DNA from: Candidatus Omnitrophota bacterium
GTDB taxonomy: Bacteria > Omnitrophota > Gorgyraeia > 2-01-FULL-45-10 > JAHFGN01
NCBI GenBank assembly: GCA_023247415.1
Contig: JAHFGN010000001.1
Coordinates: 10,062-74,061 of the forward strand
Reading direction: 5' to 3'
Length of the DNA stretch: 64,000 nucleotides
The notes under the pieces were generated by a model. The model had not been told where the DNA came from. It worked only from the letters and a program-made list of their open reading frames with translations, and ran no database searches. This document shows, piece after piece, positions 14,610 through 41,037 of the stretch. Every line of letters begins with the position of its first letter. Position 1 is the first letter of the stretch. Both the position numbers and the translations under genes were made by a program.

Positions 14610-14622
14610 AAGAGAGACGAAT

Positions 14623-18893: not shown

Positions 18894-18947
18894 TTGACTA
18901 CGCAAATATATTGGGTATACTAATGTGGTTTAGGGTTAATAAAAAAC
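18894..18947 (+). promoter_or_regulatory. Sigma70-type promoter (TTGACT-16-TATACT) plus conserved leader 'aATGTGGTTTagGGTTAATAAAA' upstream of the 18954 giant gene
   Basis: -35 at 18894-18899 and -10 at 18916-18921. The leader motif is shared with the 22271 and 32114 promoters. Confidence 0.55.
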
Positions 18948-18953
18948 TTGAAG

Positions 18954-21900: not shown

Positions 21901-22124
21901 GTTTGAGAGCGTTGTCCATAAAGAATAGCGCGGAAAGATCAGATAAGTTGTCAAGGCTTTATAAACTTTTGACCGGCGAAGATCCGAAAAAAATACCGGA
22001 TATATCCGACCCGAAAACATTTGCCCGAAACTTTATATTCATCCTGCCGCCCATTGCAGTCGAGAATTACGAATACCTGCGAAAGTTAAACTCCAACCTT
22101 CTCCACCTCATCGAATCCGCATAG
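18954..22124 (+). CDS. Giant-family protein (about 1056 aa): signal peptide, TLAP N-domain, GT-B glucan phosphorylase/glycogen-synthase-like domain, family C-module
   Basis: 'MKKIIIILAIAAFLSSNIALAEPANTLAPS' (leader). 'VSSEAWNAGGGLGRV' and 'YSGRLVPEKV' are GT5/GT35-like. The C-terminus 'FIFILPPIAVENYEYLRK' matches the family C-module. A sigma70 promoter and shared leader lie upstream. Confidence 0.75.
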   Translation: MHMKKIIIILAIAAFLSSNIALAEPANTLAPSLRFQSSFPHERPQTQGDSVLSDVKLFTVLFAIGKQLLIDNRPIRAIPRAIRNKFVFDPSFLAGIEPDGIRRDGSTIIVPYSKGTKDYEIRIRPKELLKGSSAGWKISDRFGVQAVEIKKAAADSSFRMAAGGGGPSAHQDARTAMLADGGWSPLLEELRSSLQQAAQNQDQSRLFIFLDACNEAQASDRKNPIENRYPILHAVTLLSKEEKRQLIDILLQQNNQEKRYQSAVTDSILLMLAKNIPQEWLNRWAGNMEGRTIWDVSSEAWNAGGGLGRVIQYRVLAMLNLLKGHNTRIRTVEPHYQENRDGTKLSYESLPLPIENKQKIDEFEVKFGMKKAKAICYRGIVHYKAEDNQTYEVEAYRIEDEGGYYTKCMYKYGSGGHNDPIVTWEDFSAFFSTASLELMKRVEEKEMRERQGRKPPVIHFNDSQLAPAVEYYLQDYYREPSLRDALVVFQTHTIPNRQDYIWERGVQAVKDMGIHGEAYAKIWLHFGHHRPKQGGGWEAVVDWASAGIRDAGLALGVSRQQLSVIGPFDEWKVEEQGKPYVDLIAATNGDLRELTAIEFRRIMRQVCGNDVDVEEPTVEQVLKTKQAAKKALGSELKRLKNNTMLTLNPDQYVVSYSGRLVPEKVSRTRAFTNENIEALVKMGVQVIIYGNVQNSDPSRAIERELLGLERDLKEKGYLGKFIFIPSFTPGDQRLLLAATDIQAQVSDPNTEAAGATESDIAACAGLELAPHWREGILQAQGIPINLDETGEGSILIPREDKPESYLEILTGVLSKKPPELAEYQATSVRLSRVLEAVLTSAENLRQYDAALSRRDMSRKTASGVSGVMKEIHRINLDIGVYHEAGRTFWHVIPIELVPYPIRNKFIDIVARMNRDYPDAPEKIKIVTEHQDLFDIAGRLSADNDVDVALSRRGDIDKLPDGVKALVFEGELGNFRQLEGVLACLRALSIKNSAERSDKLSRLYKLLTGEDPKKIPDISDPKTFARNFIFILPPIAVENYEYLRKLNSNLLHLIESA

Positions 22125-22236
22125 CGCATTAGTAACAGATTAGCGTAGAGAAGTATCCCGACGATGTCGTAGGGGACATTTAAATGTCCCCTACGACGGA
22201 AGCACTTCTTTTGGCTAATCTATTACGCGCATTAGC
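22124..22236. repeat. Long imperfect palindrome with perfect 30-bp core 'tcgtaggggacatttaaatgtcccctacga' (PAL-core variant), probable terminator
   Basis: The core at 22167-22196 is related to the PAL core 'cgtagggcagacttaagtctgccctacg'. The outer arms 'gcgcattagtaacagattagc' and 'gctaatctattacgcgcattagc' are partly complementary. Confidence 0.55.
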
Positions 22237-22270
22237 AGAATTAAGATTTAAAAAAGTTATATGTTGGCTA

Positions 22271-22324
22271 TTGACAATGTCTAATTTATCATTATACTTA
22301 TGTGGTTTTAAGTTAATAAAATAG
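22271..22324 (+). promoter_or_regulatory. Sigma70-type promoter (TTGACA-16-TATACT) plus conserved leader 'tATGTGGTTTtaaGTTAATAAAA' upstream of the 22359 giant gene
   Basis: -35 at 22271-22276 and -10 at 22293-22298. Confidence 0.55.
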
Positions 22325-22358
22325 TTTAACAAAGACATATATAAAAAGGAGCCAAAAG

Positions 22359-25300: not shown

Positions 25301-28300
25301 TACGCCGGAATTTATGAATGCCCACAAAGCGGCTACAATTATAGCGGCTGAAAGGATGCTCAAGATACCAGGCCTTACGCTTGCCAAATCAGCCCACCCA
25401 TATCCCGGAGAGGCCGGTTGGAAAAGTGTGAGCCCTGCTGAAAGGAAAGAAGCCCTCAAGCAGGTCGCCAATGTTGCTGGCAATAGATGGCTCATCTTAA
25501 GCGCGGATGAGCCTTGGGAGACATTCCGTCTTAAAGTAGAAGAAGCGGCTATATATGGTCAGATGGCAGGCATACTTGTCGGCCGTTCTCCCATTAAGAA
25601 CATCACACAAAAGGTTACAATAGACGGCAAGAATATAGATATGCTTAAGCCGGATGACGCAGTCAAGGATATTCTACAAACCGAAGGCGTGGAGAAACTA
25701 TTGGAGCTTCTCGGCTATATCGATAACGCGCCGGCGAACGTATGGAGAGGCCTCGGCTTCGGCGATAATTTCCATCCGCAAGCGATAAAAGATCAACTCG
25801 ACTATGCCCGCTATTCAGGAAGCGGTTTCACGTATGTCTATACGCCGGAGGACTTAATCGGAGATCCTGATGTTGTGAAAGGGCCTGAACAGGGATATAG
25901 CTGGGCAGGATACGGCATCTCAGCCTTTTTTGGGCTGGCGAAAAGGTTAATAGCGGAGATATGGTACCACTCTGTGCAGAAAGACGGACTTTCCAAGGTT
26001 CCTGGCGCAACACACGACAAGCTTCGTGAAGATATCGAAGGCGAGAAATCCGTATTCGCCAAGATTATGGGAAAAGACGAAACCCAGCCGCAGGTGGTTC
26101 ATATAGGCTTTAATGAGAAGATAGGGCCGGGCGGCGAACAGAAGCAACTATTTGTAGATCTGTGCGTAAGAGAGCGCAGATTGGTGAAAAGGCTAAAGAG
26201 AGAGTTGGAGAAATATATACATACCGAAGCCGAATTCGTTCGGTATCAAAAGGCATACGCGGCGTGGGTCAGCAGGCAGAGCGCTATCGGAGTCAAGTGG
26301 ACAAACCCCGGACTGCCAGAGCTTCCTGAGTTTATGGCGGGATTCGACATGCCAATATTCGAGGCGATACAAAATGTCAGGGCAGAGATAGTGCGCTATT
26401 TTAATGAGATCGAATTAAAGCCCGGACAGTTTATCCGTTCCCCGGTTGGATTTATCCATTCCATAGTTGGCTCTTATCAGGGGCATCCCTTGAGCGGCAA
26501 AAAGGCAAAGAATGAGGCGTGGTATATCTTCTCAATCGGCAAAGACGCCGAAGGACATGACAGGCTGCTGTATTTCGAGCCGCAGCAAACATCGAATACA
26601 ACCTATAGTCCGCTCGATTTTCCTACTCCTATAGTCTGGAAGAATGGAGGGGCGGAGATGAGAAAAGATATAGGCGCGGGGATAGATAAGGATATAGATG
26701 AATTGCTGCAAGACGGAGATAGCACGCCGGCGAATGATGAAGACGCGGTCAAAGTAATCGCCGAGAGGGCATTCTACTATAGGCCGGCAAACCCGGATGA
26801 GTTCGTAGTAAATAGCTTCGAAAATGTCACGAGCGGCGGGTTATACGCGTATCCGAAAAACGCGCGGGCAGAGTCTTTGATAGAAGGGAAAAACGCGTAT
26901 CCGAATTGGCCGGAAGACCTATTTACGCTTCACAGAATTATCTTAGTAGGCGACAGCAAGAAAAAAGAGTATGCCTTAATAACAGTCAGGCCGCCGCCAG
27001 AAGCGTATAGGTTCGACGAATTCTTCGTCATAAAAGGCAAGGTGAAGGCCAGGATAGGCGGGCAATGGTATCCGCAAGTTCTCGCTCCAGGGGCTTCTAT
27101 CTTAGTGACTGATCCGCGCAGCCAAATCGAGATACGGGCCGAAGGCGAGGCCGAGGTCCTAAGGCTGTATCATACAAAGCAAGGGCCATCACCGCGTTTG
27201 GCAAAAGCAGGCGAGGCTGTGGGGACTTCGAAAGCAGCGGAGTGGGTGAAACTTATTAAAGATCCAAATTCTTCTGAAGGCATCCGTCGTAAAGCAGCCG
27301 ATGATTTGGGCCTAATCGAATCTGTCCCGGAAGAGGCTGTCACAAGCCTTATTGAAATGTTAGACAGCGAAGACAAAGGAGTTCTAAAATATGTGGTTAT
27401 GGCATTAGGAAACATCAGGGTAAAGCGCGTTGTCCAAGGGCTTGTAGATATGCTTTCTCAAGAGGATTTTGACATGGAGGTGCGAATAGAACTTATTATC
27501 GCGCTGGGAAAAATCGGCGAACGTATGAGTGATGATTCGCAAATAAGAGCGGCCCTGGAAAATATTCTGAAGAATTTAAGCCAGATAGACCTTAACCATG
27601 CCGCCCGGTACACTCTGACTAATATGGACGCCGCTAAAAAGATGGCCGAACTCCTTAAAGATCGTACCAGCGCAAATGGAACTGATCTTCAACAGGAGAC
27701 GGCTGAAGAAGACGTAGAGACTAAAGTTGCCGGATGGAACAAAATTGATGCAGACTCCTTGCTGGGGACTCTCGCCGCCATCAGGGTAAGAAATGGGCAA
27801 TTGCGAAAGGGCCCTATCCTCATAGCCTATGACACCGGATTAGAGGAATTCCCCACCGGCCATGTAGCTCAGGCAGCGGATGCCAAGATAAATGAATATC
27901 TGGATGGAGGGCTCGTCAGTGTTCGCGGCACAGGGGAGAAGCTGCTTGAGGCCATTAAAGAGGTTGTCGCGGCTAAAGGTTTGAATCCAAAAGATGTGGT
28001 AGTCATAGCCGGAGACAATACCGCGGAGGCAGCGCGTAAATTTGGGACTGTCATCCATGTCAAAAATACAGATGGCCAGTTCCTGCCCATAATAGAATTC
28101 TACAACCTCGCGTTGAAGATACTATACGGCCTCGGCGAAGATGAGATCCTGGAATCCCTCAAGCGTATAGGCGGGGCGGAGTCATTCACAACAGAAGATG
28201 TGCGAAAGCTGTTTAGCGCGGGAATCATCAGGATACTGCCGAAGACGTTCCCGATAAGACATGCGGATGCTGTCGAGGCGTACAGAGCTACTCGCCGCGC

Positions 28301-28316
28301 GTTAGAATCGTTGTAA
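22359..28316 (+). CDS. Giant-family protein (1985 aa): signal peptide, TLAP N-domain, phosphofructokinase-like domain, DeoC/LacD/DhnA-type class I aldolase-like domain, HEAT-like repeats, family C-module
   Basis: 'ATGGGDCAGLNPAIAAF', 'IIGGEDNMG' and 'EIMGRKAGWLALYAG' are PFK GGD/MGR motifs. 'VAIVALDQG' is LacD/DhnA-like. The C-terminus is 'IIRILPKTFPIRHADAVEAYRATRRALESL'. An AAGGAG RBS sits 8 nt upstream. Confidence 0.8.
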   Translation: MSKRAIAKIVSLLLIPSFFASDIAFAANIRDALAPYSGLELANGKDEENPVLAARQNKVRALVKAKMAESLARAMYGRLKKHNDISAEVIRQTVAADVKNWSVMRQAASGSSITVKRFRGADKEIDKGNTFVIATGGGDCAGLNPAIAAFIREMQKEGKNVLGVKEGYKGVASPEFLKKYAVLLENEDAGHIQGLASTVLASSRENPYEIDAAGELKDPNRIENCRKNLDGFAGFAIIGGEDNMGVAGQFSTDEKLPKQVAAIPKSIDNDVDTQMLGFHTAWTEARDIFYAPRLEGAMAQAEKEFDEIIERFVSTAVSADAHKKYNVTLAQGDQAKKAGAWLANFIHSANPNADPIFQRLPAPLKIHLLHLRDSIVVLTPDEPRSLKDIVATSYNIYKKKRTANVLLVDGFVFGKDEDGYTKEAIAKDHLLKALYEGQEPPYAPDFIEHKAHLVRRGMIYHLAKLPHANVKGGQDVRFSMVGRMDVSRSKYSVTEIMGRKAGWLALYAGSKYPKDFEELPIELQKAVEEKRAHVLILTPEKPATLKEIVDEAGRIWKDTGRCDILVAEGLSFSKDDEYLKKLLENNKVLNAYYDEQVVHPAYDSHGHPKLEGIGWFVRWAISHFLHEELAYIPEWKMSYELRGLAPDEYDTRLGEAFGRKAAELLLSGSSGKAVTLPDGLEPIYENIQVRPIADAVRQKNITTQVERGLLTEEELRRQGVFQNLRRAASGSANVERFKREREIIKNILKAQNISLPAGISAGEVLSMLEFADAKGHVAIVALDQGTLIQWVDPKADKKDPSQESIDKGTVVRLTIMYYLANGMRAKNRRVGFLLDKPALQAISNEGSEGARAAKLIARGTLPPDFMDVIKDMPLVAQIEEARGERGVAKGVYYTAKKRDGNFSVEEAVKLGSRLIKSNVFFYCGGELTEEEKEFNKKQWEFIGEVAKECREFGIGYVSELLYLVPPEMLTRHNTDEKSYRATPEFMNAHKAATIIAAERMLKIPGLTLAKSAHPYPGEAGWKSVSPAERKEALKQVANVAGNRWLILSADEPWETFRLKVEEAAIYGQMAGILVGRSPIKNITQKVTIDGKNIDMLKPDDAVKDILQTEGVEKLLELLGYIDNAPANVWRGLGFGDNFHPQAIKDQLDYARYSGSGFTYVYTPEDLIGDPDVVKGPEQGYSWAGYGISAFFGLAKRLIAEIWYHSVQKDGLSKVPGATHDKLREDIEGEKSVFAKIMGKDETQPQVVHIGFNEKIGPGGEQKQLFVDLCVRERRLVKRLKRELEKYIHTEAEFVRYQKAYAAWVSRQSAIGVKWTNPGLPELPEFMAGFDMPIFEAIQNVRAEIVRYFNEIELKPGQFIRSPVGFIHSIVGSYQGHPLSGKKAKNEAWYIFSIGKDAEGHDRLLYFEPQQTSNTTYSPLDFPTPIVWKNGGAEMRKDIGAGIDKDIDELLQDGDSTPANDEDAVKVIAERAFYYRPANPDEFVVNSFENVTSGGLYAYPKNARAESLIEGKNAYPNWPEDLFTLHRIILVGDSKKKEYALITVRPPPEAYRFDEFFVIKGKVKARIGGQWYPQVLAPGASILVTDPRSQIEIRAEGEAEVLRLYHTKQGPSPRLAKAGEAVGTSKAAEWVKLIKDPNSSEGIRRKAADDLGLIESVPEEAVTSLIEMLDSEDKGVLKYVVMALGNIRVKRVVQGLVDMLSQEDFDMEVRIELIIALGKIGERMSDDSQIRAALENILKNLSQIDLNHAARYTLTNMDAAKKMAELLKDRTSANGTDLQQETAEEDVETKVAGWNKIDADSLLGTLAAIRVRNGQLRKGPILIAYDTGLEEFPTGHVAQAADAKINEYLDGGLVSVRGTGEKLLEAIKEVVAAKGLNPKDVVVIAGDNTAEAARKFGTVIHVKNTDGQFLPIIEFYNLALKILYGLGEDEILESLKRIGGAESFTTEDVRKLFSAGIIRILPKTFPIRHADAVEAYRATRRALESL

Positions 28317-28328
28317 AAATGCCTAAAA

Positions 28329-31300
28329 ATGTCGAGAAATTTTAACAAATTTTGTGCTGCAGGGTGCCAACTTGTGGGACGTCCCCTTTTGGTCCTCGTA
28401 TTTCTCCTCAATGATCTGGGATTTGCCAGCGGCCACGATGCGCTGGCGCCTCACTATATCTCCGGGCTCCGCGAAGACGACGATAATGGCGCCGCGGTTC
28501 TTGACGCCCGCGCCAGCAGGGTCAAACAGGAGATGAGGGCGGCCGCATCGGGCGCGCTTGCCGAAAAGATACGCGCCAAATTACATGAGAAAAACATACC
28601 CGTAACCAGCGAAGAACTCGAGGAGATAGTCAGCGACAACGTCCGATCCGGCGGCCTGCGCCAGGCAGGGAGCGGTGAGTATACGCCGTCGCCGCAGGAA
28701 CTCGGGCTCATGGACAGCCTCGGCTTTGAGTTGGCTGATAAACAGGGCAGGGTCCGGTATAAGCGCGATTATAAACCGCCGGAGCTGGGTGTCGATCTCT
28801 GGTATATGACGCATGGCGCAACGGACGGAAATAAAGCGGCACTGCTTCAAGGGAGCCGTTCAGACGGAGAGCAAAGGTTTTATCTGAATGAGGAGGGGCA
28901 TAAACAGGCGAAAGAGGGCGCGGAGAAACTGTGGAATATTTTAGGCGTTCGCCTTATGACTGGCGAGAAGATCGTATTTTTGACAAGTCCGATAAGCCGC
29001 GCCCGCCAGACAGCAGATCATTTCATAAAGTTTGTCGAGATCAAAAGCGAGGGTAAGTTAAATATTGAATTAGTCCCTCTGGAAATACTTAAAGAGGTTG
29101 ACCATGGATTCTGGGATGGCAAGAAGAGAGAAGAGTTGCCGGAAGATGAGAAAATCCTGGCAGGGCAGAATTATGCAAGAAATGTCTTTGTAAAATCTCA
29201 AATTCTTCCGGGAGAAAACTTCCTCGAATTCATAAAACGTGTCCGCACCGCCGTCGAATTCATCAACCGCGAGTATAAAGGTAAGACGGTCATTATATTC
29301 GGACACGGTTTCTATTCAGCCGCAATCAAGATTGTCCTCAAGACCCAAGAGGTGGACCAAATAATCGCTGAAAAAGGATATATCGACTGGTCAAAACCTC
29401 TCCAACCCCATACTCACGAACGCTGCCAGCCGATCCATTTCGCTGCGACAGCAGGCGAGCGCAAGGCGACGAGCGGGGATGAGATTGAGCAATTTAAGCC
29501 AGTGGAATTGAGCCCGCAAAATATAGAGCGAGAAACGCCGCGGCAATTGGATGGCCTGCCAGCCAATACAGCGATGCTTCTTCGGGTCATACCGAAAACG
29601 CCCCAGGAAGCCCAGGAATGTAAAGATCTTGTCGAGCTCAATATCGGGCTAAGGCCCCTTATGACTTATGAAGGACTGTTAAAAATATACACTCAAGAGG
29701 CTCTCGCGCATAGGATCTCGAAGGGCGAAGGATCTCTGACAATATTGCTTCCCTTTAGACTTAAGGTCCCGGGCCTCAAAGGTCTCTCAGAGTTGAAGGC
29801 GGTATTAGGCATTGAAAAAACATGGGGAATGCTTCCAGATGAATTTCAATCGGACTTCAATCTTTTAGGAACAAGGAGAGATACAGTCGAAGTGCGAAGA
29901 AGATTGTTGACAGAGGCATTTAAACTACTTTCTGCCGGGGAGTTGCGCCTCGAAAATATAGCGGGATTTCCTATCGGCCTTCCAGAGAAAGCGGATAAAG
30001 AGTACTTCGCGAACGAGATGAAACTGGACCCGAATAGACTCTTCTCAGAGACTGAAGCGAATGAGATTTCAAGTCGGCTCGCAGCCGCAAAGGCCGAGCA
30101 GGAAGCTGAGAAATTACAAGAAAAACTGCAAAAAGAGCGAGATAGGGATGCCGCCCTGGCCGCTGCCAGGCTCGATCCAATTATTCAAAAGGCGAAGGCG
30201 GATCTAAACAGCATGCTCGATGAACTGGCCTCCTCTTCAGTCCCTCCGGCGCCGGATGAAGTGGAGGCCTTAAGAGGCGACATCGCTAAATTATCGGATG
30301 CCGAGCCGCTAGATAGAGGCAATTTTCAGCAGGCGGGCGCGAGCCTGAAAGGGCGCCCAGATGGTTTGCGTCGGAGGATCAAGAAGCTGGAAGAAAAATA
30401 TAGAGAAGAGCGAGAGATAACAGATTTGCTCTTGCGAATAATCTATTTAATAGACGCGAAAGATTGGCCAAAATTTTTGGCGCAGGATGTGCCGAACGCG
30501 TTCAGCTCTAATATTCTTGGGGAATATCCAAAGCTGAGCGATCGAACAGTCGAGCGCTTAAACCAGATAGTTCACTCTATCCATCAGGCGCTGCATTCTC
30601 AACACTTCGATGACCCAATAATTTATTCTACCTTAAGGACCATCCAGGCCATGATTGTGAACGCCTTAGCAGCCGCTGGAAGGATATCAGAGTCAGCGGC
30701 GCAAGTTTTCTGCGAAGACAACCTCTCAACTCAAGGCGATGTGTGGGTTCGCCAGAGAAATATTTGGTCAGAACGGCTTAAGCGAAGATTGGAAAGGGGT
30801 GGATTAGTCAAGGGCGGCCTTCCGCCTCCTCCTCCGCAGTCTATACTAAAGGCTATGGGGGCTAGAGGCAAGACGGGTGAGATAGCGTCCCGCTGCCTTG
30901 GGGTGTTTGACCTTCTCATTCTCTCAAGCAGGAGAGAGCAGTTCTCTGAGCCTGCGGCCCGGGATATCACTTTAGGGCCATTCACAGCTCTTTACTGCTC
31001 TATGCTCCGTATTGAAAAGGCTGACAATGGCGCGATTGCCGGTGTCTCCGACTATTTAAAATCGTTGTATCTACGCGTTGGCGAGGTGCCGGCAGATATA
31101 AAAAAGGGCGTCCTCTTAGGCAAGGCGGCCTATCTTGTTAATCTCGGGATGGTCGAGGTTTCGCTCGCCAGCATGGCGTCAGACCATTTCGGCGCTAAAG
31201 ACTTTGCGGCTGAATTTATGGATGTCGCCAGAGGGATATCCAAGTGGTTACCCAAAAAATACCCAGAATACAAGCCTTGGTATCCGCCGCTTCTGGCCGC

Positions 31301-32033
31301 GTATCTGAATGAGCCTGGCAGGCCCGCGCCTGAGGCGCAGGCTGGCGGCCAGACCGCGCCAACAACATCTGACCGAAAATCTACGAGCGGGATAAGGCAG
31401 GGCCTCGCCGCCGGTCCGGCAGTTCGCGCTGCAATGAGCGGAAGGGAAAAGAAAGAGGCGCGGGGGGCTAACATTCCCCAATCCCTAAGCGGCAAGATGG
31501 CTTTGCGCAAGACTCTCTTGACTTTGGTCTCTAAAGAATTGCAAAAAGGGCCTGTCGTGATAGCCACTGACACTGAACTTGTGCCAATTGAGATTGCCCA
31601 GATGGCTGAGAAGGTGACGAAGAGGTACTTAGGCGGCAGCGTGATGCATATAAGAGGCGCTGGTGAGAAGCTTCTTGAAGCTATCAGGGCCAAAGGCCTA
31701 AACCCGAAAGATGTTGTGATAATAGCCGGAGACAACACTGCGGGAGAGGCCCGAAAATTAGGGACTGTCATCCATGTCAAAAATCCGGAAGGAGAGTTCT
31801 TACCTATATTAATAGAGCTCTATGACCTCGCCCTGAAGATACTATATGGCCTGGGCGAGGAGAAGATATTGGAGTCTCTTAAGGGTATCAGCGCGGATAG
31901 ATGTGATGAGGCGGATGTGAAGAGGCTGCTCATTGAAGGCATAATCAGGATTCTGCCGAAGACAATTAAGATATCTGGCGCGGAGAAGCTAGAGGCGTAC
32001 AGCGCGACTCAAGCCGCCCTCCAATCGCTGTAA
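28329..32033 (+). CDS. Giant-family protein (about 1234 aa): TLAP N-domain, histidine-phosphatase (phosphoglycerate-mutase-like) domain, coiled coil, family C-module
   Basis: 'LWYMTHGATDGN' and 'VIIFGHGFYSAA' are branch-1 histidine-phosphatase motifs with a THG core. The C-module is about 70% identical to that of the preceding gene. The annotated 5' end is encoded by a REP element, so the true start is uncertain; an in-frame TTG lies before 'VLVFLLNDLGFASG'. Confidence 0.75.
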   Translation: MSRNFNKFCAAGCQLVGRPLLVLVFLLNDLGFASGHDALAPHYISGLREDDDNGAAVLDARASRVKQEMRAAASGALAEKIRAKLHEKNIPVTSEELEEIVSDNVRSGGLRQAGSGEYTPSPQELGLMDSLGFELADKQGRVRYKRDYKPPELGVDLWYMTHGATDGNKAALLQGSRSDGEQRFYLNEEGHKQAKEGAEKLWNILGVRLMTGEKIVFLTSPISRARQTADHFIKFVEIKSEGKLNIELVPLEILKEVDHGFWDGKKREELPEDEKILAGQNYARNVFVKSQILPGENFLEFIKRVRTAVEFINREYKGKTVIIFGHGFYSAAIKIVLKTQEVDQIIAEKGYIDWSKPLQPHTHERCQPIHFAATAGERKATSGDEIEQFKPVELSPQNIERETPRQLDGLPANTAMLLRVIPKTPQEAQECKDLVELNIGLRPLMTYEGLLKIYTQEALAHRISKGEGSLTILLPFRLKVPGLKGLSELKAVLGIEKTWGMLPDEFQSDFNLLGTRRDTVEVRRRLLTEAFKLLSAGELRLENIAGFPIGLPEKADKEYFANEMKLDPNRLFSETEANEISSRLAAAKAEQEAEKLQEKLQKERDRDAALAAARLDPIIQKAKADLNSMLDELASSSVPPAPDEVEALRGDIAKLSDAEPLDRGNFQQAGASLKGRPDGLRRRIKKLEEKYREEREITDLLLRIIYLIDAKDWPKFLAQDVPNAFSSNILGEYPKLSDRTVERLNQIVHSIHQALHSQHFDDPIIYSTLRTIQAMIVNALAAAGRISESAAQVFCEDNLSTQGDVWVRQRNIWSERLKRRLERGGLVKGGLPPPPPQSILKAMGARGKTGEIASRCLGVFDLLILSSRREQFSEPAARDITLGPFTALYCSMLRIEKADNGAIAGVSDYLKSLYLRVGEVPADIKKGVLLGKAAYLVNLGMVEVSLASMASDHFGAKDFAAEFMDVARGISKWLPKKYPEYKPWYPPLLAAYLNEPGRPAPEAQAGGQTAPTTSDRKSTSGIRQGLAAGPAVRAAMSGREKKEARGANIPQSLSGKMALRKTLLTLVSKELQKGPVVIATDTELVPIEIAQMAEKVTKRYLGGSVMHIRGAGEKLLEAIRAKGLNPKDVVIIAGDNTAGEARKLGTVIHVKNPEGEFLPILIELYDLALKILYGLGEEKILESLKGISADRCDEADVKRLLIEGIIRILPKTIKISGAEKLEAYSATQAALQSL
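28353..28390 (+). repeat. REP element copy (tgtgctgcagggtgccaacttgtgggacgtcccctttt)
   Basis: It is the same roughly 38-bp sequence as the two REPs flanking the RAYT gene. It contains the palindromes ctgcag and ggggacgtcccc. Confidence 0.75.
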
Positions 32034-32035
32034 AT

Positions 32036-32090
32036 TTTGTGCGGCAGGCACCCTGCCGCAGAGAGCAGGGTGCCTGCACACGGTTAAGAT
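32036..32090. repeat. Degenerate REP-like palindrome (possible REP pair/terminator)
   Basis: 'ttttgtgcggcaggcaccctgccgcagagagcagggtgcctgcacac' shares 'ttttgtgc.gcaggg.gcc' with the REP and folds as a long hairpin. Confidence 0.45.
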
Positions 32091-32113
32091 TGCAAAAATT
32101 TTGTTTTCGACCC

Positions 32114-32167
32114 TTGACAAGTGAAAGAATATCAGTATACTTATGTGGCTTTAAAATTAAAAAAATG
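32114..32167 (+). promoter_or_regulatory. Sigma70-type promoter (TTGACA-16-TATACT) plus conserved leader 'tATGTGGcTTtaaaaTTAAAAAAA' upstream of the 32216 giant gene
   Basis: -35 at 32114-32119 and -10 at 32136-32141. An AAGGAG RBS lies at about 32203-32208. Confidence 0.55.
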
Positions 32168-32215
32168 TTTACAAAGAATATGAGGAAGAAAAACAGCAAA
32201 CATAAGGAGAAGACC

Positions 32216-35200: not shown

Positions 35201-38104
35201 TATGGTTCACCGAATATTACGACTATGCAGGCTATTGAAGGAAGCGCGGGCATCTATTTCAAGAATCAGAAGGTGGCTGACCTGCGCCGGGATTCATTTA
35301 CGCGGCTTGTAAGAGGAGAGGCGCTTGACACTACAGGAAGGAACGAGATCGCCCAGCATCTTCCGCGAGAGCTGTTTAAATTGGTAAACCTCAATAAAGG
35401 TCCGGACCCTGATTTTGGATCGGATTCAGGGTATGCGACCAAGGCCATCTACTCCGGTAAAGAGTCGCGTTTCCCGCAAGATGAGCCGATGGTAGTCGTC
35501 ATGAATCTGGGCAAGGTGCAGGTCGCTGTATACCAATCGCAGGCCGGCGCTGAGGCTGTGGGCGGAATCCTCGGGGTGGGCGTTAAAGAACAGAGCGTTG
35601 ATGGTCTGGGAGGCGACCGGCAGGACTTGCGTCCCGTTACATGGGAAGAGGCCGCTTCTCAAACGTTGGATTCGCTAAAGGGGCGAAAGATCGCGCCCAC
35701 CACATTCACCGCGAGCCAGATGAACCGCGGAAGATTCGGCGAGGTGATCGATCCTGTTAAGGAGAGCCCGGAGTTTCGCGTAAGAAATCTCGCCAGGAAG
35801 GTGAAGGGCGAAATAGATTTTGAGGAAGTTTACAGGGCGCACTGGCCGATCCAGCCGGGCACCAATGCCGTCACAGCGGAGGATATATCGGCAAAGGCGT
35901 GGAATGAACTGAAGGAACAGGGCAGCGCCGAAGAAGATGTTGTTTCAATCATTTACGGCAAGCTCAAGAAAGAAAAGCGCGTCAAGATGATAAGGCGCTG
36001 GAAAGACGCCAGCGAGAACCGCGAGGAATTCACCATGAGCGTGTTCAAGGCCGATATAGGCAGTTCCCTTGGCCATACGATCCCGCCAAAGCTCCTCATG
36101 ACCCTGATAAGGGCGTATCTGGAATACGCGAAGGCCAAGGGCTGGATACAGGATTACCTTGTTCAAAAAGAGCTTCCCATGTTCAGGGTTGGAGACGATA
36201 TAGAGATAGTCATATCGCACAAGAAAGGCATTGAGGACAGCGATATACACAGGCTCGCGGTCCGCGCCTTCTACTTCGCGCTCTACTTCGCCGATGCCGC
36301 GAAACGCGACGAATATTACGGGTTTGGGCAGGACCTGCCGCTCGATGTCGACTACTTCCTGGCCTTTGCCAAGATCTATACGGGCGAGGATCAGCAGAAT
36401 ACGGAAAGTTTCGTAGTAGATAAAAGCATAACATCTTTAATGGAAGACTATGTCAAACCCAGAGTGGAAGCATTGTCGCGGGAAGACAGGTATACTATCA
36501 CACAAGCTGAAATCAGCGCCGTATATAACCATTTCAATAACGCATATATGGAATTAAAAACAGACGTATATCAGTCCAAGAAAGAGACTAAGATCGCGGC
36601 TGGGGCAACCGGCAACGTCAGCGGTTCCGGTATAGGTTTCGCTGAGCTAAGCCGCGCTAAGCTCGCGCCGGGCAGGTCCTACACATTCTTCGCGTTCGAC
36701 AAGGCCAGCCCAGGCGCATTCTCCTTACCTTATTATGAGGCTGCCTTGGTCGCTTTGAGGGCCGGAGATTATGATAACCTCAGCTTTGAGGTGGAAGTTG
36801 TGAAGCCGCTTGATAAGCATGAAATTGGGCAGAAGATTATGCTCATAGATGTCGCGGAACAGCCGGAGCTTCTAAAAAATGTCCTTTCTTCAGTGAACGA
36901 CTTCCAGATAAAGGCTGTATGGACAAAGGACCGGGATGGTTCATTCAGGATGGTAGCCGCGAATTCCACGGAACGGCTATATCAGTCTGAGAAGGCTCAT
37001 GGCGCGTATCTTGGCAAGGACGACCCAGCCGCCATGATGGAACAGGCATTCGCGAACCGCGTCATCGAATGGATGGCCGCGAATCCTTATATAATTCAGG
37101 GTGACGAGCGTGGATCTCATATGGCGTTTGTCCTGCTCACATCAGCAACACAGTCCTCCCCCGGCACATTCAGCATACCTGTGGCTGTGGCTGTCTCCTT
37201 TACGCTGGGGCTGAACGGGGAGCTTAGAGATATAATAGACGTATTCGGAGCCCCCAAGTTTGAATTGCCCATGGCTAAAGCTGTGGCGGCCAATGAGCTT
37301 TATATCGAAAGGCATGGTAATAACGCGAATCGCGGCGAGATAGGGCTAATCGAAGAGTCATATCCCGGCCGCAGGCTGCACAGGAAGATACTCAAAGACG
37401 CTAACCCCGCTCTTTCTATAGGCGAGATCATGGCCGAACGCGGCCGTCAGGCAGCGAGCGGCGGGGCCAACGAAGCCGTCGCCGGCGGCTGGCTGTATGA
37501 TAAGGTTACTGTTCCTGATGCTGAAAATTTAGGTGATACCCTGCGCGTTATCAAGGCCTCCAGCGTGTTGAATAAGGAAACGGACAATCGCGTGCTGATC
37601 CTGGCCCTGCCCAATGAGGTGGTGCCAAGCGATATGGCGGTGAAGTTTGGACAATTGGCGGATCGCTATCTTGGAACAGGCGCGGTCCAGATTATCCGCG
37701 CGAACCAGGATTCGCTCTACGGAAAAGCCGTCTCAATAGCGGGACAGGTAAAGCAAGCCGGGAAAGAGGCCATAGTCGTATCTATGGTAAGCGCCGGAGC
37801 CGGCGAAAGCGTTGTCAATGACCTGGCGAGGTTAGGCAAGGTCATGAAGATAGCGGATGGAAGCTTTGTCTCTCCGGGCTTCGTGGACCTGGCCCTTCGA
37901 ATAGCGTATGGCACGCAGGGAGAGGTCCTCGCTTGCCTGAACAGGATAGCGACTCATGAGAAGGGGTTGGCGTTCAGCGAAGAGGATATCGCGCGTGTCT
38001 TCAAGGGCCTTGTGATCATACTGCCGAGAGCAGGTTCAGTTGACCTCAAGACAGCCCGGGAAGCCTACACCGCGGCGAAAAAGTACATCGATACATCGCT
38101 GTAA
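32216..38104 (+). CDS. Giant-family protein (about 1962 aa): signal peptide, TLAP N-domain, glucosamine-6-phosphate deaminase (NagB)-like domain, family C-module
   Basis: ATG 32216 is preceded by AAGGAG. The leader is 'MVSGRRLFLKVIALALVPTFISSSITFAQP...STLAPASR'. 'LGLATGGT...VVTFNLDEYKGL...ILGIGSDGHYAFHEP' matches NagB catalytic motifs. The ORF-track start at 32039 lies in a palindromic repeat upstream of the promoter. Confidence 0.75.
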   Translation: MVSGRRLFLKVIALALVPTFISSSITFAQPIPDNRSTLAPASRTDAVDDSNRGRGDVLTNTVAKNFTDQWFEAYGSKIARKLFLALSRPATPEVAEAVVKHNTIGMDGKTQLRFINAVKARIAPTTTGLRMAGSGTSRTATNGETVTPPGNIKLLVARNKEAMAREMAERIVVKVREANRAGQRMTLGLATGGTMERVYELVVEITKNERLDWSGVVTFNLDEYKGLLSTHKQSYRAFMDKHLFTPLVQFGLKIEDTHVFDGTASVPDDELRKFLGMIKRHGGVDLQILGIGSDGHYAFHEPAVVVDDAMASAIYNGELSPEQTEKVGGFNEFIITGKDLAAKSNAIQRVIHAKSVWLTALESNESILAKVKEAWTKEKREVNEADIRGQLRQLGKKLLLGQTLHFYIDGLDKEAKKNLLSHISSDELYRMSYVGRVELHDAKEFFDSKAKVVDLALSTIIDNSRYFPSLLDVPTQAYTLTGVVREAKEILLAASGENKAEAIAGALGKTISQEVTSSILQTHPNTTFIIAEDALTKVPSEVVTKADKNRVFASAARSALSGYTREDAKREVPVAFAEHRAFCIGEPIVENELGMYIPSFNKWTESDVKAFEETLKDLPNLEGIGIDGDGKAALTIKKEKFISDSQVLTGLIKFLFDWAQKREEREKSEAVSNNEVLAAFKDLVNSIALIRTSIGSMAKPEIEEDSAAKRYVLVLDDTQAPATVDQLKKEARLTAMFTGIEPPIHYEYGRGTPWVGFTGSHAGAASIYTSVARTKQYVKLIEEAVRDGHSQYAELLKMAFIQSLSGNMEAKNKIVETIIVAEHENDNKKALEKIKAEDKDRFTETFVSVDLSRALGQLAQIPEAIAKSAENYLLTAIDKGEINDFVVKRFGELLIFDVTHNNPIYDIHLRAQEIIAASIREAFAEVIRLGYYKIEQEKIDFTKASLQELAKALDWNTDEIRYTKGQSNKRKSQPTMRQFIFGADERAFNSILFNLYGSPNITTMQAIEGSAGIYFKNQKVADLRRDSFTRLVRGEALDTTGRNEIAQHLPRELFKLVNLNKGPDPDFGSDSGYATKAIYSGKESRFPQDEPMVVVMNLGKVQVAVYQSQAGAEAVGGILGVGVKEQSVDGLGGDRQDLRPVTWEEAASQTLDSLKGRKIAPTTFTASQMNRGRFGEVIDPVKESPEFRVRNLARKVKGEIDFEEVYRAHWPIQPGTNAVTAEDISAKAWNELKEQGSAEEDVVSIIYGKLKKEKRVKMIRRWKDASENREEFTMSVFKADIGSSLGHTIPPKLLMTLIRAYLEYAKAKGWIQDYLVQKELPMFRVGDDIEIVISHKKGIEDSDIHRLAVRAFYFALYFADAAKRDEYYGFGQDLPLDVDYFLAFAKIYTGEDQQNTESFVVDKSITSLMEDYVKPRVEALSREDRYTITQAEISAVYNHFNNAYMELKTDVYQSKKETKIAAGATGNVSGSGIGFAELSRAKLAPGRSYTFFAFDKASPGAFSLPYYEAALVALRAGDYDNLSFEVEVVKPLDKHEIGQKIMLIDVAEQPELLKNVLSSVNDFQIKAVWTKDRDGSFRMVAANSTERLYQSEKAHGAYLGKDDPAAMMEQAFANRVIEWMAANPYIIQGDERGSHMAFVLLTSATQSSPGTFSIPVAVAVSFTLGLNGELRDIIDVFGAPKFELPMAKAVAANELYIERHGNNANRGEIGLIEESYPGRRLHRKILKDANPALSIGEIMAERGRQAASGGANEAVAGGWLYDKVTVPDAENLGDTLRVIKASSVLNKETDNRVLILALPNEVVPSDMAVKFGQLADRYLGTGAVQIIRANQDSLYGKAVSIAGQVKQAGKEAIVVSMVSAGAGESVVNDLARLGKVMKIADGSFVSPGFVDLALRIAYGTQGEVLACLNRIATHEKGLAFSEEDIARVFKGLVIILPRAGSVDLKTAREAYTAAKKYIDTSL

Positions 38105-38159: not shown

Positions 38160-40931
38160 ATGAAAATACAACATCCAAAACATATGCAAAAGACGATATC
38201 GATATTGTTGATACTGACATTCCTTCCCTATAATCTAGCATTTGCGCTCGCGCCGTCTTATGTCTCCAGGCCTTTCGGCAAAGAGGACCCGCGGAGCGCC
38301 AAGCAGGCCGAGATATTAGCGACGGCAAAGAAGGCTCTGGCAGTCAAGATGGAGCGGCGTTTGTACGAGCTGCAGAAAAAGACCGCGCCTCAAGATTATC
38401 TGCCCGCGGGACTTCGTCTGGCCGCAAGCGGCGGCTCGAATGGCGGGAATGTCGCAGGGCCGTTTACGCTGAAGGAAGCGAAAGAAGCAATCAATGTCAT
38501 AAATGTTGTTAAGAGTAGGACTGCAGCCGCGCCCCGCGGCTCGAAGGCAGGCGGCGCTCCAGGTTCTGCTAAGGCTGGCGTTTCGCCTGAAGAGGCATTG
38601 AAGGCGATGGCAGATGAGTATCTGGACCGATTTAGGCAATATATGTTAACTCTCCACCCCGTCACTCGTAACATACTTATAAAAAAGAGAACGGCGATGA
38701 TAAGACAGGCCTTGAAATGCGCAAACGATGATCCAAGGGATGCGCTTACACTACTGCAAAATAGTTTGAGCGAATGTGAAATGTGGGAAAAGCTGCGAGA
38801 GGTTTCGCTGATGCAAACAGAAAGAAAAGAAGTAGAGGCCTCTATCCGGGAGATGGCAGCGCAGAATGAGGCAGCTGGAGACCAGACCGCAGTTACAATC
38901 CTCGGCGAAGACGGCAAGGCCATAACTGGTCAGAACAGGCAGGCCCAGGCCGGCCGCGACGCGAGGGGCGGCGGAACGCCTGAAGCGGCGACTGGGTCTA
39001 ATATCGTGCTCCTACAATACCCGTCCAAGCCGACACTGGATGCATATTTTGATGCCCGTTCTGGAGGCGATGGAGAAACATTGAAAAAGGCGAGGGACAA
39101 GGCGGCAAAACAGGCAGTTGCCGCAACATCTAAATTGGATCCAACAGGCAGGCAAGCTCTGTCATTAGTATTGAATCTTATGGAGCAGAGAGGGTGGGAC
39201 GTCAATCAGGACCGCCGTGAATTCGAAGCGCTAAGCAGTAGAATTGACTATTGGACCAATAAGTTTTCGCCTAAGTCTCAACAAGCAAAAAAGATTGTCC
39301 CCGCTAATAGAAGAGAGCTGATAAAAGCAGCCAAAGATAGCGGGTTTCCTGATAATATCAGGCAGGATTTTGAGCGCAAGCAGCGTGGTATACAGCTTCT
39401 ACAGGTGAGGCAATTGAGGGATGGTGAGGTCGTGTTGATATATTCTACCGGATATCCAGTGATGGAGAATATGGCAAGTGGTAGTTTCACGACTATTTGC
39501 TACACACTGCTTCATTCAGATGGAAAATATCATATGCTTCCGGTCAGCTATCACAATACCAGCAAAGGGCTGGAGGCATCCATAGACTTAGATGATGTGG
39601 TGGAGGGTATTAAATATCGCGATCTCATAATAAGGAGCAGGTTGTTGGCCGGCACAGAAGAGCCGTTATTATGGAAAGCGCTTGGGAGTGCGGCCGATAT
39701 AGTTGATATGGCTGTCAGACAAAATGTTCAATTAGGTGAATCGCCATCCCCTGAAATAGTCCGCGGCTCAAAGGCCGGCATTGCCGCGCTGCCTGCCGCG
39801 CCGGTCGTCTCGCCGGCAGGGAGATTCGCGGATGGATACAAGACCTGGGGGGAGGTGCCGGGGATAAATGTATTTACCTTCTATCCGCGGGAAGGGGAGA
39901 GAGTTTATGTCATGTTCTTGAGCGACGCTGAAAGGAATGACCCTACTCTCCCCTCGCATGGCAGAGCGGATTTCAGTAACGGCCAGTTCGCGGCATATGT
40001 GATGCAAAAAGACATCGTGCATTCGGCTCAAAGAGTACCGATGCCTGAGGTTTGCAATAAAGTTATCGCGTTCCTAAAAAATGCGACAACAGGAAGCAAA
40101 GACTTATATGCGCGCAGGACAGTAGAACATGAATATGTAATAGGTTCAACGAAAATTGGGGAGATCGCGGCCATCTTCGCTGAAAAAGGAAAGATAACCG
40201 TAACCTTCGGCGATAGACAGGAGGAATTCTCCGACACTGCCGCCGCAGCCCAGGTTCGCGAGGCCAATAGCGGAATCGCGGAGCGCAATATCGCTGTGGA
40301 TTGGAGAAGCTATCACGAAGCCCGGGCGGCTGAATTCAGATCCGGGCTTATTCGCACGTTGACTGAACATCCTGATAAAGAATTTGTCCTGGCTGTTGAT
40401 ACTGACATCGGAGGCGCGCATAAGGCTCAAATCATGCCGATATGGAATGCGTTCGATGATATCAGAAAGCTCGCCTACAAAGACGGCAAGCCGCTATTTC
40501 CGAATCTGTCAATAATAAGGGGGGCCGGCCTCACCCTCGCGTCGAAGATAGCTAGAGCCAGAAACGAGAAGAGTGTTGACTTAGGCAGTATCTTCGTCGT
40601 CGCCAAAAAGGCCAATGTTGACAATAGGGCCTTTGAGCCGCTTACAGGGGCGTGGATAGCCGCGATAGACGATTCAGCGGCCGGCGAAGGCGTCTACATG
40701 CCTGTATTTGAGGCCGCGACAATCACGATGATGGCCGCGCTGAATGTCGATTCGGCCGCCATCAAGACGTTCTGCGACTCTATAACCGACAAGCCGATAG
40801 ACCCTAAAGCCATAGACGAATTTAAACGCGGCAGGATCCTGTATCTGATGCCGAGGGCAGCGAGATTCGACACAGAAAAAGCCCTCCGCGACGTCTACGA
40901 ACTCGCGAGGATTACGTATACAGCGGCGTAA
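38160..40931 (+). CDS. Giant-family protein (923 aa) with family leader and C-module but no recognisable enzyme domain
   Basis: The leader is 'MQKTISILLILTFLPYNLAFALAPSYVSRP'. The C-terminus 'RILYLMPRAARFDTEKALRDVYELARITYTAA' matches the family C-module signature. Confidence 0.65.
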   Translation: MKIQHPKHMQKTISILLILTFLPYNLAFALAPSYVSRPFGKEDPRSAKQAEILATAKKALAVKMERRLYELQKKTAPQDYLPAGLRLAASGGSNGGNVAGPFTLKEAKEAINVINVVKSRTAAAPRGSKAGGAPGSAKAGVSPEEALKAMADEYLDRFRQYMLTLHPVTRNILIKKRTAMIRQALKCANDDPRDALTLLQNSLSECEMWEKLREVSLMQTERKEVEASIREMAAQNEAAGDQTAVTILGEDGKAITGQNRQAQAGRDARGGGTPEAATGSNIVLLQYPSKPTLDAYFDARSGGDGETLKKARDKAAKQAVAATSKLDPTGRQALSLVLNLMEQRGWDVNQDRREFEALSSRIDYWTNKFSPKSQQAKKIVPANRRELIKAAKDSGFPDNIRQDFERKQRGIQLLQVRQLRDGEVVLIYSTGYPVMENMASGSFTTICYTLLHSDGKYHMLPVSYHNTSKGLEASIDLDDVVEGIKYRDLIIRSRLLAGTEEPLLWKALGSAADIVDMAVRQNVQLGESPSPEIVRGSKAGIAALPAAPVVSPAGRFADGYKTWGEVPGINVFTFYPREGERVYVMFLSDAERNDPTLPSHGRADFSNGQFAAYVMQKDIVHSAQRVPMPEVCNKVIAFLKNATTGSKDLYARRTVEHEYVIGSTKIGEIAAIFAEKGKITVTFGDRQEEFSDTAAAAQVREANSGIAERNIAVDWRSYHEARAAEFRSGLIRTLTEHPDKEFVLAVDTDIGGAHKAQIMPIWNAFDDIRKLAYKDGKPLFPNLSIIRGAGLTLASKIARARNEKSVDLGSIFVVAKKANVDNRAFEPLTGAWIAAIDDSAAGEGVYMPVFEAATITMMAALNVDSAAIKTFCDSITDKPIDPKAIDEFKRGRILYLMPRAARFDTEKALRDVYELARITYTAA

Positions 40932-40947: not shown

Positions 40948-41022
40948 TCCCCTCACCCTACCCTCTCCCCATGACCGTAGGGCAGACTTAAGTCTGCCCT
41001 ACGGCTCCCTGGGAGAGGGTAG
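40948..41022. repeat. PAL-family copy 3
   Basis: 'cccctcaccctaccctctccccatgaccgtagggcagacttaagtctgccctacggctccctgggagagggtag'. Confidence 0.7.
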
Positions 41023-41037
41023 AAGAAGGATGGAATC

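Follow-up and report, generated by a model that had tools for sequence, protein, structure and literature searches.

Organization of the locus

Within the 64,000-nt stretch of DNA analysed here (the window), five consecutive giant genes, A to E, all end in the same ~190-aa domain, hereafter the C-module (Table 1); giant-gene lengths in the window range from 923 to 3056 aa. Gene A codes, in order, for a signal-peptide-like N-terminus, a ~100-aa leader, a divergent PFK, a tagatose-bisphosphate-aldolase-like region, HEAT repeats, and the C-module, and gene B for a signal-peptide-like N-terminus, a leader, a histidine-phosphatase (PGAM-like) region, ~700 aa without assigned function, and the C-module. 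A single hydrophobic segment, preceded by K/R and with an A-x-A-like end, lies at the N-terminus of each product of genes A to E and Y, the signal peptides being assessed by eye and hydropathy only; the C-module family HMM has no match in Y or Z. The TIM region of gene E retains its catalytic His and Glu motifs.

A leader of ~42 nt is conserved upstream of Y, A, and C, forming direct-repeat family D4 (18910-18951, 22287-22328, and 32130-32171), and the promoter-like site upstream of A is part of it. The ENA start of gene C (TTG 32114) is itself the −35 hexamer of the corresponding site. A stable hairpin directly follows the B stop, with no T-run adjoining it, and probably marks the end of the A-B transcription unit as a predicted terminator.

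Genes A and B were described in the first-pass annotation as lying in the same reading frame, separated only by a TAA stop and 12 nt, and this holds [(28329 − 22359)/3 = 1990] given ATG 28329 as the start of B. The ENA call begins 60 nt later, at TTG 28389, and codes for 1214 aa with a truncated signal peptide; we accept ATG 28329 because it restores the complete signal peptide. There is no exact record of the 1234-aa product, because the public call starts later.

Two minus-strand ORFs, opposite the 3′ parts of genes A and B, are almost certainly non-coding. The earlier description of them as artefacts stands, although its attribution of them to a duplication does not, as 112 antisense stretches of 70 or more codons without a stop occur along the seven giant genes. 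Both ORFs lie in the same relative frame, and they have LTWMTVPN..AVLSPA..TTSFGF in common only because both reverse-complement homologous coding sequence.

Table 1. Positions of the genes, C-modules, and other features in the window
Feature	Position	Strand	Basis or remark
Promoter-like site TTGACA-16-TATACT upstream of A	22271..22298	+	11/12 consensus match, intergenic; predicted function
Gene A, 1985 aa	22359..28316	+	ORF; Pfam PFK and HEAT; NCBIfam
C-module of A, aa 1795-1985, to last residue	27741..28313	+	Family HMM, E = 5e-51
Antisense ORF, 73 aa	27869..28090	−	Non-coding by-product of sense frame (almost certainly)
24-nt run, copy 1	28044..28067	+	Encodes GTVIHVKN, strand beta4 of the C-module; identical to 31761-31784
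TAA of A and 12-nt spacer (AAATGCCTAAAA)	28314..28328	+	Precedes in-frame ATG of B
Gene B, 1234 aa	28329..32033	+	ORF; Pfam His_Phos_1
Antisense ORF, 216 aa	31130..31780	−	Non-coding by-product of sense frame (almost certainly)
C-module of B, aa 1057-1234	31497..32030	+	HMM, E = 2e-44; sister to A module, bootstrap 99/100
24-nt run, copy 2	31761..31784	+	Second identical 24-mer
Stable hairpin directly after B stop	32039..32081	+	MFE −38.6 kcal/mol for 32030-32112, z = −4.9
Gene C	32039-38104		NagB-like and FBP aldolase/phosphatase; Pfam, NCBIfam
Promoter-like site TTGACA-16-TATACT of C	32114..32141	+	D4 repeat
C-module of C	37508..38101	+	HMM, E = 8e-31
Gene D	38160-40931		Payload without assigned function
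C-module of D, divergent "D-type"	40314..40928	+	HMM, E = 5e-56
Gene E, 2104 aa	41038-47352		GAPDH-PGK-TIM
C-module of E	46726..47349	+	HMM, E = 8e-57

Extent of the likeness between the A and B modules

The 3′ ends of genes A and B can be aligned, as had been noted, but they are not near-identical at the DNA level, with 64% identity over 172 aligned codons. Over the last ~175 codons the protein identity is 60%, and the ~70% over ~160 aa given earlier becomes 60% over 172 aa, or 50% over 239 by BLASTP. Protein identity of 78-82% is confined to a core of ~60-80 aa, and a 58-codon core (A 27954-28142, B 31683-31862) has 78% protein and 75% DNA identity; the best ungapped DNA stretches, of 135 and 87 nt, are 76-77% identical. 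An identical 24-nt stretch, GGGACTGTCATCCATGTCAAAAAT, was correctly reported; it occurs exactly twice in the window with none expected, and is the longest exact word common to the two modules. Both of the 32-mers quoted with it exist too, but they lie ~40 nt further on (repeat family D2) rather than directly after the 24-mer. DNA identity between A and B is 0.578, against 0.546 ± 0.011 predicted from the protein alignment and codon usage, some 3 points above the prediction (P = 0.004).

Synonymous divergence and selection

Synonymous divergence between the A and B modules is high, with dS estimates of 2.13 (NG86), 1.73 (LWL85), and 1.86 (ML), at a dN of ~0.30 and dN/dS of ~0.07-0.16. Core and flanks differ in dN (0.12 and 0.50, respectively) and in dN/dS (~0.07 and ~0.25), whereas their dS values overlap (1.3-1.8 and 1.8-2.3), and codon identity is alike (25/45 and 29/57). 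Because dN differs and dS does not, we interpret the core/flank mosaic as the result of selection and not of a young conversion tract; a tract limited to the core, which the mosaic amino acid identity had raised, was rejected since neither dS nor codon identity differs between the two.

These values point to an ancient separation of the A and B copies, with no sign of ongoing homogenisation, and their synonymous sites are estimated to have turned over about twice (dS ~2). Purifying selection accounts for the 64-75% DNA identity and the 24-nt run, together with codon usage common to both genes and a slight trace of their ancestry. We thus consider it likely that the DNA likeness is best explained as the trace left by one protein domain, common to both genes and under strong constraint, and not as a sign of recent copying, and the evolutionary part of this account, an old domain held under constraint, is very likely. 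As a case of gene conversion the pair is unimportant, being an old paralogous domain under purifying selection.

The likeness could instead have arisen by lineage-specific co-evolution or convergence, for example on the same partner surface, without a younger shared ancestor. Consistent with this, the extra similarity lies in the central ~60-75 residues (76-79% between A and B, compared with 36-60% to outgroups), the A and B flanks resemble one another no more than they do outgroups, and dS does not differ from core to flank. However, rate heterogeneity with a single divergence time gives the same pattern, and it is implausible that convergence would reach 78% identity over 58 residues. There is also a small, weak residual synonymous signal between A and B: at four-fold sites, third positions are identical at 18/39 for A-B, compared with 7/24 for A-E and 7/23 for B-E, and ML dS is 1.9 for A-B but >12 for A-E and B-E. 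We therefore regard co-evolution or convergence as unlikely.

Recent tandem duplication or ongoing gene conversion, the explanation put forward in the first-pass annotation, is excluded by the near-saturation of the A-B synonymous sites (module-wide dS of 1.7-2.1, with no synonymous dip at the protein-identity peak), the very finding that the annotation had said would refute it; we judge it highly improbable. Several features would suit such an origin: the two genes are neighbours that share strand and frame, their modules are mutual nearest relatives, and besides the 24-nt run they have more identical codons than a codon-usage null predicts (P ~0.002-0.003), with 54 counted where 35.9 are expected. 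But codon excess and long exact runs are found equally in ancient pairs, with 26 identical codons against 14.7 expected for D-E and 28 against 18.6 for C-E (an excess ratio comparable to that of A-B), and a 22-nt exact run in A-E (seven identical codons in a row, P = 0.003); the eight in a row between A and B have P = 0.035 given their overall codon identity. Nor are the modules of neighbouring genes homogenised at the other loci of the C-module family, where same-locus modules are dissimilar.

Of the duplication claim, a lineage-specific event at the level of the module, whether duplication or replacement, survives. The A and B modules are mutual closest relatives among 127 family members (57% identity, compared with at most 48% to others; NJ bootstrap 99/100), which implies an event within the lineage and says nothing of its recency. 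The nearest relatives of the D and E modules are in other genomes (P0022 at 61% and P0007 at 55%, respectively). Identities between the N-terminal leaders are 31% for A-B, 37.5% for B-E, and 33% for A-E, so that the B leader is closest to E and the B C-module closest to A, which argues for a modular history and against whole-gene duplication. One old module-level duplication or replacement would account for the A-B sister relationship, and an old conversion event and a duplication at the birth of the gene would leave the same sequence pattern. We found no close relative of the source genome in sequence collections, and all five proteins form singleton 90% clusters.

A functional element acting at the nucleotide level within both coding regions, such as an RNA structure or regulatory site, has very little probability. 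The double occurrence of a 24-mer expected not to occur could point to one, as could the fall of exact runs on the most conserved peptide motifs in three genes (D5, D6); however, the runs are in frame over the most conserved residues (GTVIHVKN, IIRILPK), there is no Rfam match in the window, and synonymous sites elsewhere in the module are saturated. The in-frame arrangement only 12 nt apart might also suggest one gene read through its TAA, or an assembly collapse or chimera, but this can hardly be entertained: B has its own signal-peptide-like start as do other family members, the C-module lies no more than two residues from the protein end in 149 of 150 database relatives and in all of genes A to E, 17 of the 30 genes in the window stop with TAA (more than with any other codon, and conserved housekeeping genes among them), copies with no common exact word longer than 24 nt cannot collapse, and an independent Logan contig is 100% identical across 22199-28379, an interval that takes in the whole of A with its stop, the spacer, and B as far as its 51st nt.

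The C-module family

The C-module has no match in Pfam, NCBIfam, or PDB sequences. The AlphaFold model of the A module has a pLDDT of 91.8 and a pTM of 0.89 (the C-module structure models have pLDDT of 81 and 92), and predicts a Rossmann-like alpha/beta fold with four beta-alpha units, three helices, a fifth strand, and a terminal helix. With a word-indexed search, the A C-module gave no usable homologues, full-length B retrieved only itself, and a 30-sequence profile yielded one fragment; a GTDB scan with B gave no match. An exhaustive HMM search of 1.84 billion representative proteins identified at least 254 clusters, 164 of them at E < 1e-10, and a nine-sequence alignment used as query found two loci in GTDB and two in JGI metagenomes. 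Giant genes stand in tandem at these four related loci too, of which two belong to "Candidatus Omnitrophota" MAGs and two to metagenome contigs.

A signal-peptide-like N-terminus is present in 75 of 98 long family hits, and the payloads, which are of cytoplasmic type, vary widely (PFK, PGAM, FBP aldolase/phosphatase, GAPDH-PGK-TIM). The C-module thus marks an unusual family of signal-peptide-bearing giant enzymes of sugar metabolism, apparently from Omnitrophota, and its definition by a profile, a confident fold, and conserved residues provides a searchable marker for this class of protein. Much of glycolysis/gluconeogenesis is encoded in this region as proteins of 1-3 kAA, each opening with a Sec-type signal and closing with the uncatalogued C-module; in relatives, two named Omnitrophota genomes among them, dozens of further enzymes that are normally cytoplasmic are flanked by this pair of ends.

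A possible assembly or targeting role

Because a fixed architecture frames such varying payloads, we tentatively propose that the C-module serves as a shared handle for assembly or targeting, by which many different enzymes would acquire the same partner or destination; in each protein, enzyme payloads of cytoplasmic type would be set between a Sec-type signal peptide with its ~100-aa leader and the C-module. The C-terminal edge of the sheet, where this fold usually binds its ligand, carries conserved D-T, R-G-x-G, and G-D-x-T residues, so the C-module could recognise a phosphorylated ligand or partner. Its definition also offers a concrete starting point for asking where these enzymes act and how they assemble.

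A more specific reading, which we think rather doubtful, is that signal peptide, leader, and C-module serve to export and dock the members of a multi-enzyme assembly located outside the cytoplasm. The cell, an ultra-small and possibly predatory member of the Omnitrophota, would then deploy a near-complete glycolytic/sugar-phosphate set (PFK, aldolase, TIM, GAPDH, PGK, PGAM, FBPase, and glycogen synthase) in its periplasm, on its surface, or against prey. The C-module would join different enzymes in a dockerin-like manner, or the export machinery would recognise it, and the recurrent R-x-A-A-S-G linker motif would represent processing sites. Kizina et al. 2022 reportedly discusses glycolysis in V. 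archaeovorus.

Comparison with known systems

The proposed handle resembles several known C-terminal modules in its arrangement. Cellulosomal enzymes are analogous: in one organism, many different catalytic payloads likewise carry a secretion signal and end in one shared module, but the dockerin is a ~70-aa Ca-binding duplicated loop-helix module (PF00404), whereas the C-module is a ~190-aa alpha/beta domain without a Pfam match, and a cohesin-like partner is so far absent from the picture. The T9SS CTD and the autotransporter beta-domain are also strictly C-terminal, with an N-terminal Sec signal and a variable passenger; they are a beta-sandwich and a beta-barrel, respectively, unlike the alpha/beta C-module, and T9SS is a Bacteroidota system. 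By fold or profile all three are ruled out by the alpha/beta model and the lack of Pfam matches, although the C-module may have a role similar to theirs. The HAD-superfamily phosphatase core and CheY-like receivers are Rossmannoid folds that use phospho-aspartate, but only half of the C-module aligns with them; neither assignment was retained, as 0/30 members match a HAD or Response_reg HMM even at E ≤ 5, and the A and B modules are without the second Asp of HAD motif I [DxDx(T/V)].

Long and giant Omnitrophota proteins with sugar-metabolism enzyme domains have been described [West-Roberts et al. 2023 (10.1101/2023.11.21.568195); Nielsen & Lui 2026 (10.64898/2026.06.07.730766)]. The phylum is apparently the same, the relatives of the window genes being Omnitrophota MAGs, and the two sets have in common oversized genes, highly divergent glycolytic/sugar-phosphate domains (TIM, FBPase, PGM/PMM, aldolase, and starch synthase), and signal peptides, a combination of sugar enzymes and signals that predicts enzymes outside the cytoplasm. 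The proteins treated in those studies are at least 10,000-30,000 aa long, have many TM helices, and carry SecA-like domains, whereas those of the window measure 0.9-3 kAA, possess a single N-terminal hydrophobic stretch, and have no profile match to a SecA domain. The window proteins have none of the features given for "Archaeovorins" (West-Roberts et al. 2023: at least 30,000 aa, many TM helices, SecA_DEAD-like), and the accessible text of the two reports describes no common C-terminal domain.

For pathway calling in Omnitrophota the locus offers a caution, with enzyme domains far below curated family cut-offs and gene starts miscalled. Gene E codes for PGK and then TIM, the same order as in the bifunctional PGK-TIM fusion NF010569 of NCBIfam, as in Thermotoga, but scores 336 bits against a cut-off of 883, and the pair is embedded in a 2104-aa protein with GAPDH, a signal peptide, and the C-module.

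The 3′ ends of genes A and B are alike but not near-identical

Genes A and B, the first of five consecutive giant genes (A–E) that each close with a ~190-aa domain (the C-module), were described in a first-pass annotation as nearly identical in DNA at their 3′ ends, reflecting recent duplication or ongoing gene conversion. The ends do align as homologs, but DNA identity over the last 172 aligned codons is 64%, short of near-identity, and protein identity over these codons is 60%, not the ~70% over ~160 aa initially estimated; BLASTP gives 50% protein identity over 239 aa. A 58-codon core reaches 78% protein and 75% DNA identity, and the best gap-free DNA segments have 76% identity over 135 nt and 77% over 87 nt. 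The reported identical string, the 24-mer GGGACTGTCATCCATGTCAAAAAT, is present in exactly two copies in the window (28044 and 31761; 0 expected); the other quoted strings are also there, although ~40 nt downstream of the 24-mer rather than directly after it. The A–B junction is as described, with a TAA stop, 12 nt, and then an ATG in the same frame.

We considered whether this arrangement reflects an assembly artefact or TAA read-through, and reject both. The longest word common to the two copies is 24 nt, which makes collapse by an assembler impossible. An independent Logan contig matches window positions 22199–28379 at 100% identity, a span that takes in the whole of A, its stop, the spacer, and the beginning of B. 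TAA is the commonest stop (17 of the 30 window genes) and also ends conserved housekeeping genes, and B has a signal-peptide-like segment of its own at the N-terminus. Two antisense ORFs had been attributed to the duplication; both are ordinary examples of their kind, of which the seven giant genes hold 112 (antisense, free of stops, and at least 70 codons long; ~3 per kb). Their mutual resemblance is confined to segments that are antisense, in the same relative frame, to homologous coding sequence.

The A and B modules are old, selectively maintained paralogs

Synonymous sites between the two modules are saturated, with dS of 2.13 (NG86), 1.73 (LWL85), or 1.86 (ML) and dN of ~0.30. The first-pass annotation had itself named such saturation as what would overturn its reading, and recent duplication or ongoing conversion is refuted. 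Although dN is unequal in the core and flanks (0.12 and 0.50), codon identity is similar (25/45 and 29/57, with dS of 1.3–1.8 and 1.8–2.3, respectively), and the amino acid mosaic is thus one of constraint, not of age. Four-fold sites are identical at 18 of 39 positions for A–B versus ~30% for A–E and B–E, a faint synonymous signal that fits an old split, younger than those of the other paralogs.

We compared the A/B identity with a null in which synonymous codons were resampled from giant-gene codon usage. DNA identity (0.578 observed versus 0.546 ± 0.011 expected, P = 0.004), identical codons at identical residues (56 versus 40.8, P = 0.002), and the longest exact run (24 nt versus 11.7 nt, P = 0.003) all exceed it. 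The same relative codon excess is seen in C-module pairs that diverged far earlier (D–E, 26 observed versus 14.7 expected; C–E, 28 versus 18.6; A–E, 29 versus 21.1), and the small A–B excess is therefore not specific to A and B; A and E also have in common a 22-nt exact run, ATCATCAGGATACTGCCGAAGA, encoding IIRILPK. The resampling takes no account of site-specific codon preference where residues are conserved, and this preference is probably behind much of the excess.

A neighbor-joining tree built from 127 modules pairs A with B as sisters (99/100 support), and the nearest relatives of the D (61%) and E (55%) modules are in other genomes, not this one. The B leader (the ~100-aa N-terminal region behind the signal-peptide-like segment) is closest by BLASTP to that of E (37.5% identity, versus 31% to A), so the A–B relationship is modular and not a whole-gene duplication. 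At two loci outside the window, the modules of neighboring genes are 36% identical (L004) or without detectable similarity (L007), and each has much closer relatives elsewhere than in the neighboring gene; homogenization of neighbors is not a property of the family. The proposed module duplication thus stands in an ancient form but not in a recent or ongoing one, and the best reading is that the module was duplicated or replaced once, long ago, in the window's lineage and has been under purifying selection since. The likeness of A and B is ordinary for a paralogous domain that is old and maintained by selection.

The C-module defines an uncatalogued domain family

All-against-all BLASTP showed that A–E have in common both the C-module and the ~100-aa N-terminal region. 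A five-copy C-module profile searched against 1.84 billion representative proteins matched 254 clusters, of which 164 had E < 1e-10, and in 149 of the 150 matches listed the module ends no more than 2 residues from the protein end. Among 98 matches of at least 600 aa, 75 have an N-terminus in which basic residues precede a hydrophobic segment with an A-x-A-like end, assigned by eye as a Sec-type signal peptide, with conserved N-terminal modules next. The N-terminal signal-like segment is the sole hydrophobic segment of each window protein. In a collection of 15 billion proteins, each of the window's five C-module proteins forms a cluster by itself, and we found no family for the C-module in Pfam, NCBIfam, or PDB sequences. 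This uncatalogued, well-defined C-terminal domain family is a marker of signal-peptide-bearing giant metabolic enzymes.

The AlphaFold model of the C-module, a confident one (pLDDT 91.8, pTM 0.89), has a helix, four beta-alpha units, three helices, a fifth strand, and a terminal helix; Foldseek with this model returned no match at E < 1e-3. Conserved residues (numbered along the 195-aa A module) are D35-T36, R66-G-x-G69, G95-D96-x-T98, P171, and Y185, mostly after strands 1–3 of the model, where they would form a putative ligand site, as is usual for such folds.

Database relatives outside the window (P0009–P0070 and P0054–P0150) carry long conserved N-terminal modules of two types behind the signal peptide: one of ~650 aa containing ..ITTDPEKIVIPRDYGLVK..IHIQDAHCNYEAQ.., and another of ~240 aa containing NLAPSLVSD.DINP.RS..EPGAIGNG.PL...HECVPE.

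One pair of termini accompanies many unrelated enzymes

Related loci were recovered from two 'Candidatus Omnitrophota' MAGs, the only named genomes, and two JGI metagenome contigs, and large tandem genes are present at all four. The window itself is probably of Omnitrophota origin. In the window, multi-enzyme proteins of 0.9–3 kAA (162–9332, 18948–22124, and 22359–47352) cover much of glycolysis, gluconeogenesis, and glycogen and amino-sugar metabolism. The payload enzyme domains all score far under NCBIfam cut-offs (bits/cut-off: PFK 116/431, GAPDH 84/367, FBP aldolase/phosphatase 153/520); the GAPDH Cys and the TIM His and Glu motifs are retained in E, and THG replaces RHG in B.

Features of the window and of related loci (positions in the window unless a locus is named)
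Feature	Position	Strand	Length	Content
AbiEii-type toxin gene and overlapping partner ORF	9469–10861			Partner upstream, unannotated
TatD-family hydrolase/radical-SAM domain fusion	10864–12237		457 aa	Adjoins toxin gene
Promoter and leader, Y	18894–18951			Intergenic
Gene Y	18948–22124			Glycogen synthase; C-end unlike A–E
Promoter and leader, A	22271–22328			Intergenic
Gene A	22359–28316	+	1985 aa	Long ORF; PFK, tagatose-bisphosphate-aldolase-like region, HEAT repeats
Core of A module	27954–28142			
Gene B	28329–32033	+	1234 aa	Long ORF; histidine phosphatase/PGAM-like
Core of B module	31683–31862			
Hairpin after B	32039–32081			z = -4.9
Promoter and leader, C	32114–32171			Intergenic
Gene C		+		NagB-like, FBP aldolase/phosphatase
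Gene D		+		No assigned payload
Hairpin after D	40948–41033			z = -8.8
Gene E		+		GAPDH, PGK, TIM
IS200-type Y1 transposase gene	47394–48002	-		PF01797 in public call
L004 genes	10608–17135 (L004)		2175 aa	PFK
			≥1141 aa	ROK
			868 aa	
L007 genes				Two adjacent giant genes

Elsewhere, the same termini flank PGM/PMM, inositol-phosphatase-type FBPases, UDP-glucose pyrophosphorylase, PGI, PGK, and PFK, and the D-type modules (a divergent branch named after gene D) add methyltransferases, mannitol and glutamate dehydrogenases, epimerases, and Macro, RTC, and HAD domains. D-type modules have D-T-D and D-D residues. Since one pair of termini is found on so many unrelated enzymes, we favor a generic role for them in targeting or assembly over one in a particular reaction.

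Gene Y has a signal-like N-terminus, and its C-terminal region (aa 870–1058) differs from the C-module. It matches the C-end of the PFK-bearing gene of L004, in an Omnitrophota MAG, at 33% identity, and the two may represent a second family of terminal modules.

Comparison with known systems

The available text of two preprints describes very long Omnitrophota proteins with divergent sugar-metabolism enzyme domains and signal peptides, and discusses their predicted extracytoplasmic location as puzzling (10.1101/2023.11.21.568195; 10.64898/2026.06.07.730766). The C-module giants are part of this Omnitrophota phenomenon, although the window genes are far shorter than the giants in that text and lack multiple TM helices or SecA-like domains. 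What defines them is a shared C-terminal domain, which the same text of neither preprint describes. The closest architectural analogy is with secreted enzymes that end in a docking or sorting module, such as a dockerin or T9SS CTD, but membership in either is excluded by fold and profiles. The folds nearest to the C-module are those of HAD and receiver domains, but by profiles and motifs it belongs to neither family.

Transcription units, gene starts, and neighboring genes

Near-consensus promoters (TTGACA/TTGACT-16-TATACT) lie upstream of Y, A, and C, each beside a conserved ~30-nt leader, TATGTGGyTTTAr..TTAATAAAA; this common arrangement suggests that Y, A–B, and C–D are co-regulated transcription units. 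Very stable hairpins lie directly 3′ of the B and D stops, the latter with a perfect 15-bp inner stem nested within a longer stem, and these hairpins are candidates for terminators, RNA-processing sites, or REP-like elements. In the public call, B starts at TTG 28389, which cuts into the signal peptide, and ATG 28329 is better; the start called for C, TTG 32114, is actually the -35 hexamer of the gene's promoter, and an ATG at ~32165–32216 is better. The toxin gene and the adjoining TatD fusion lie upstream of Y, and the Y1 transposase gene is directly downstream of E, with the giant-gene block on one side and an ilv/leu operon on the other.
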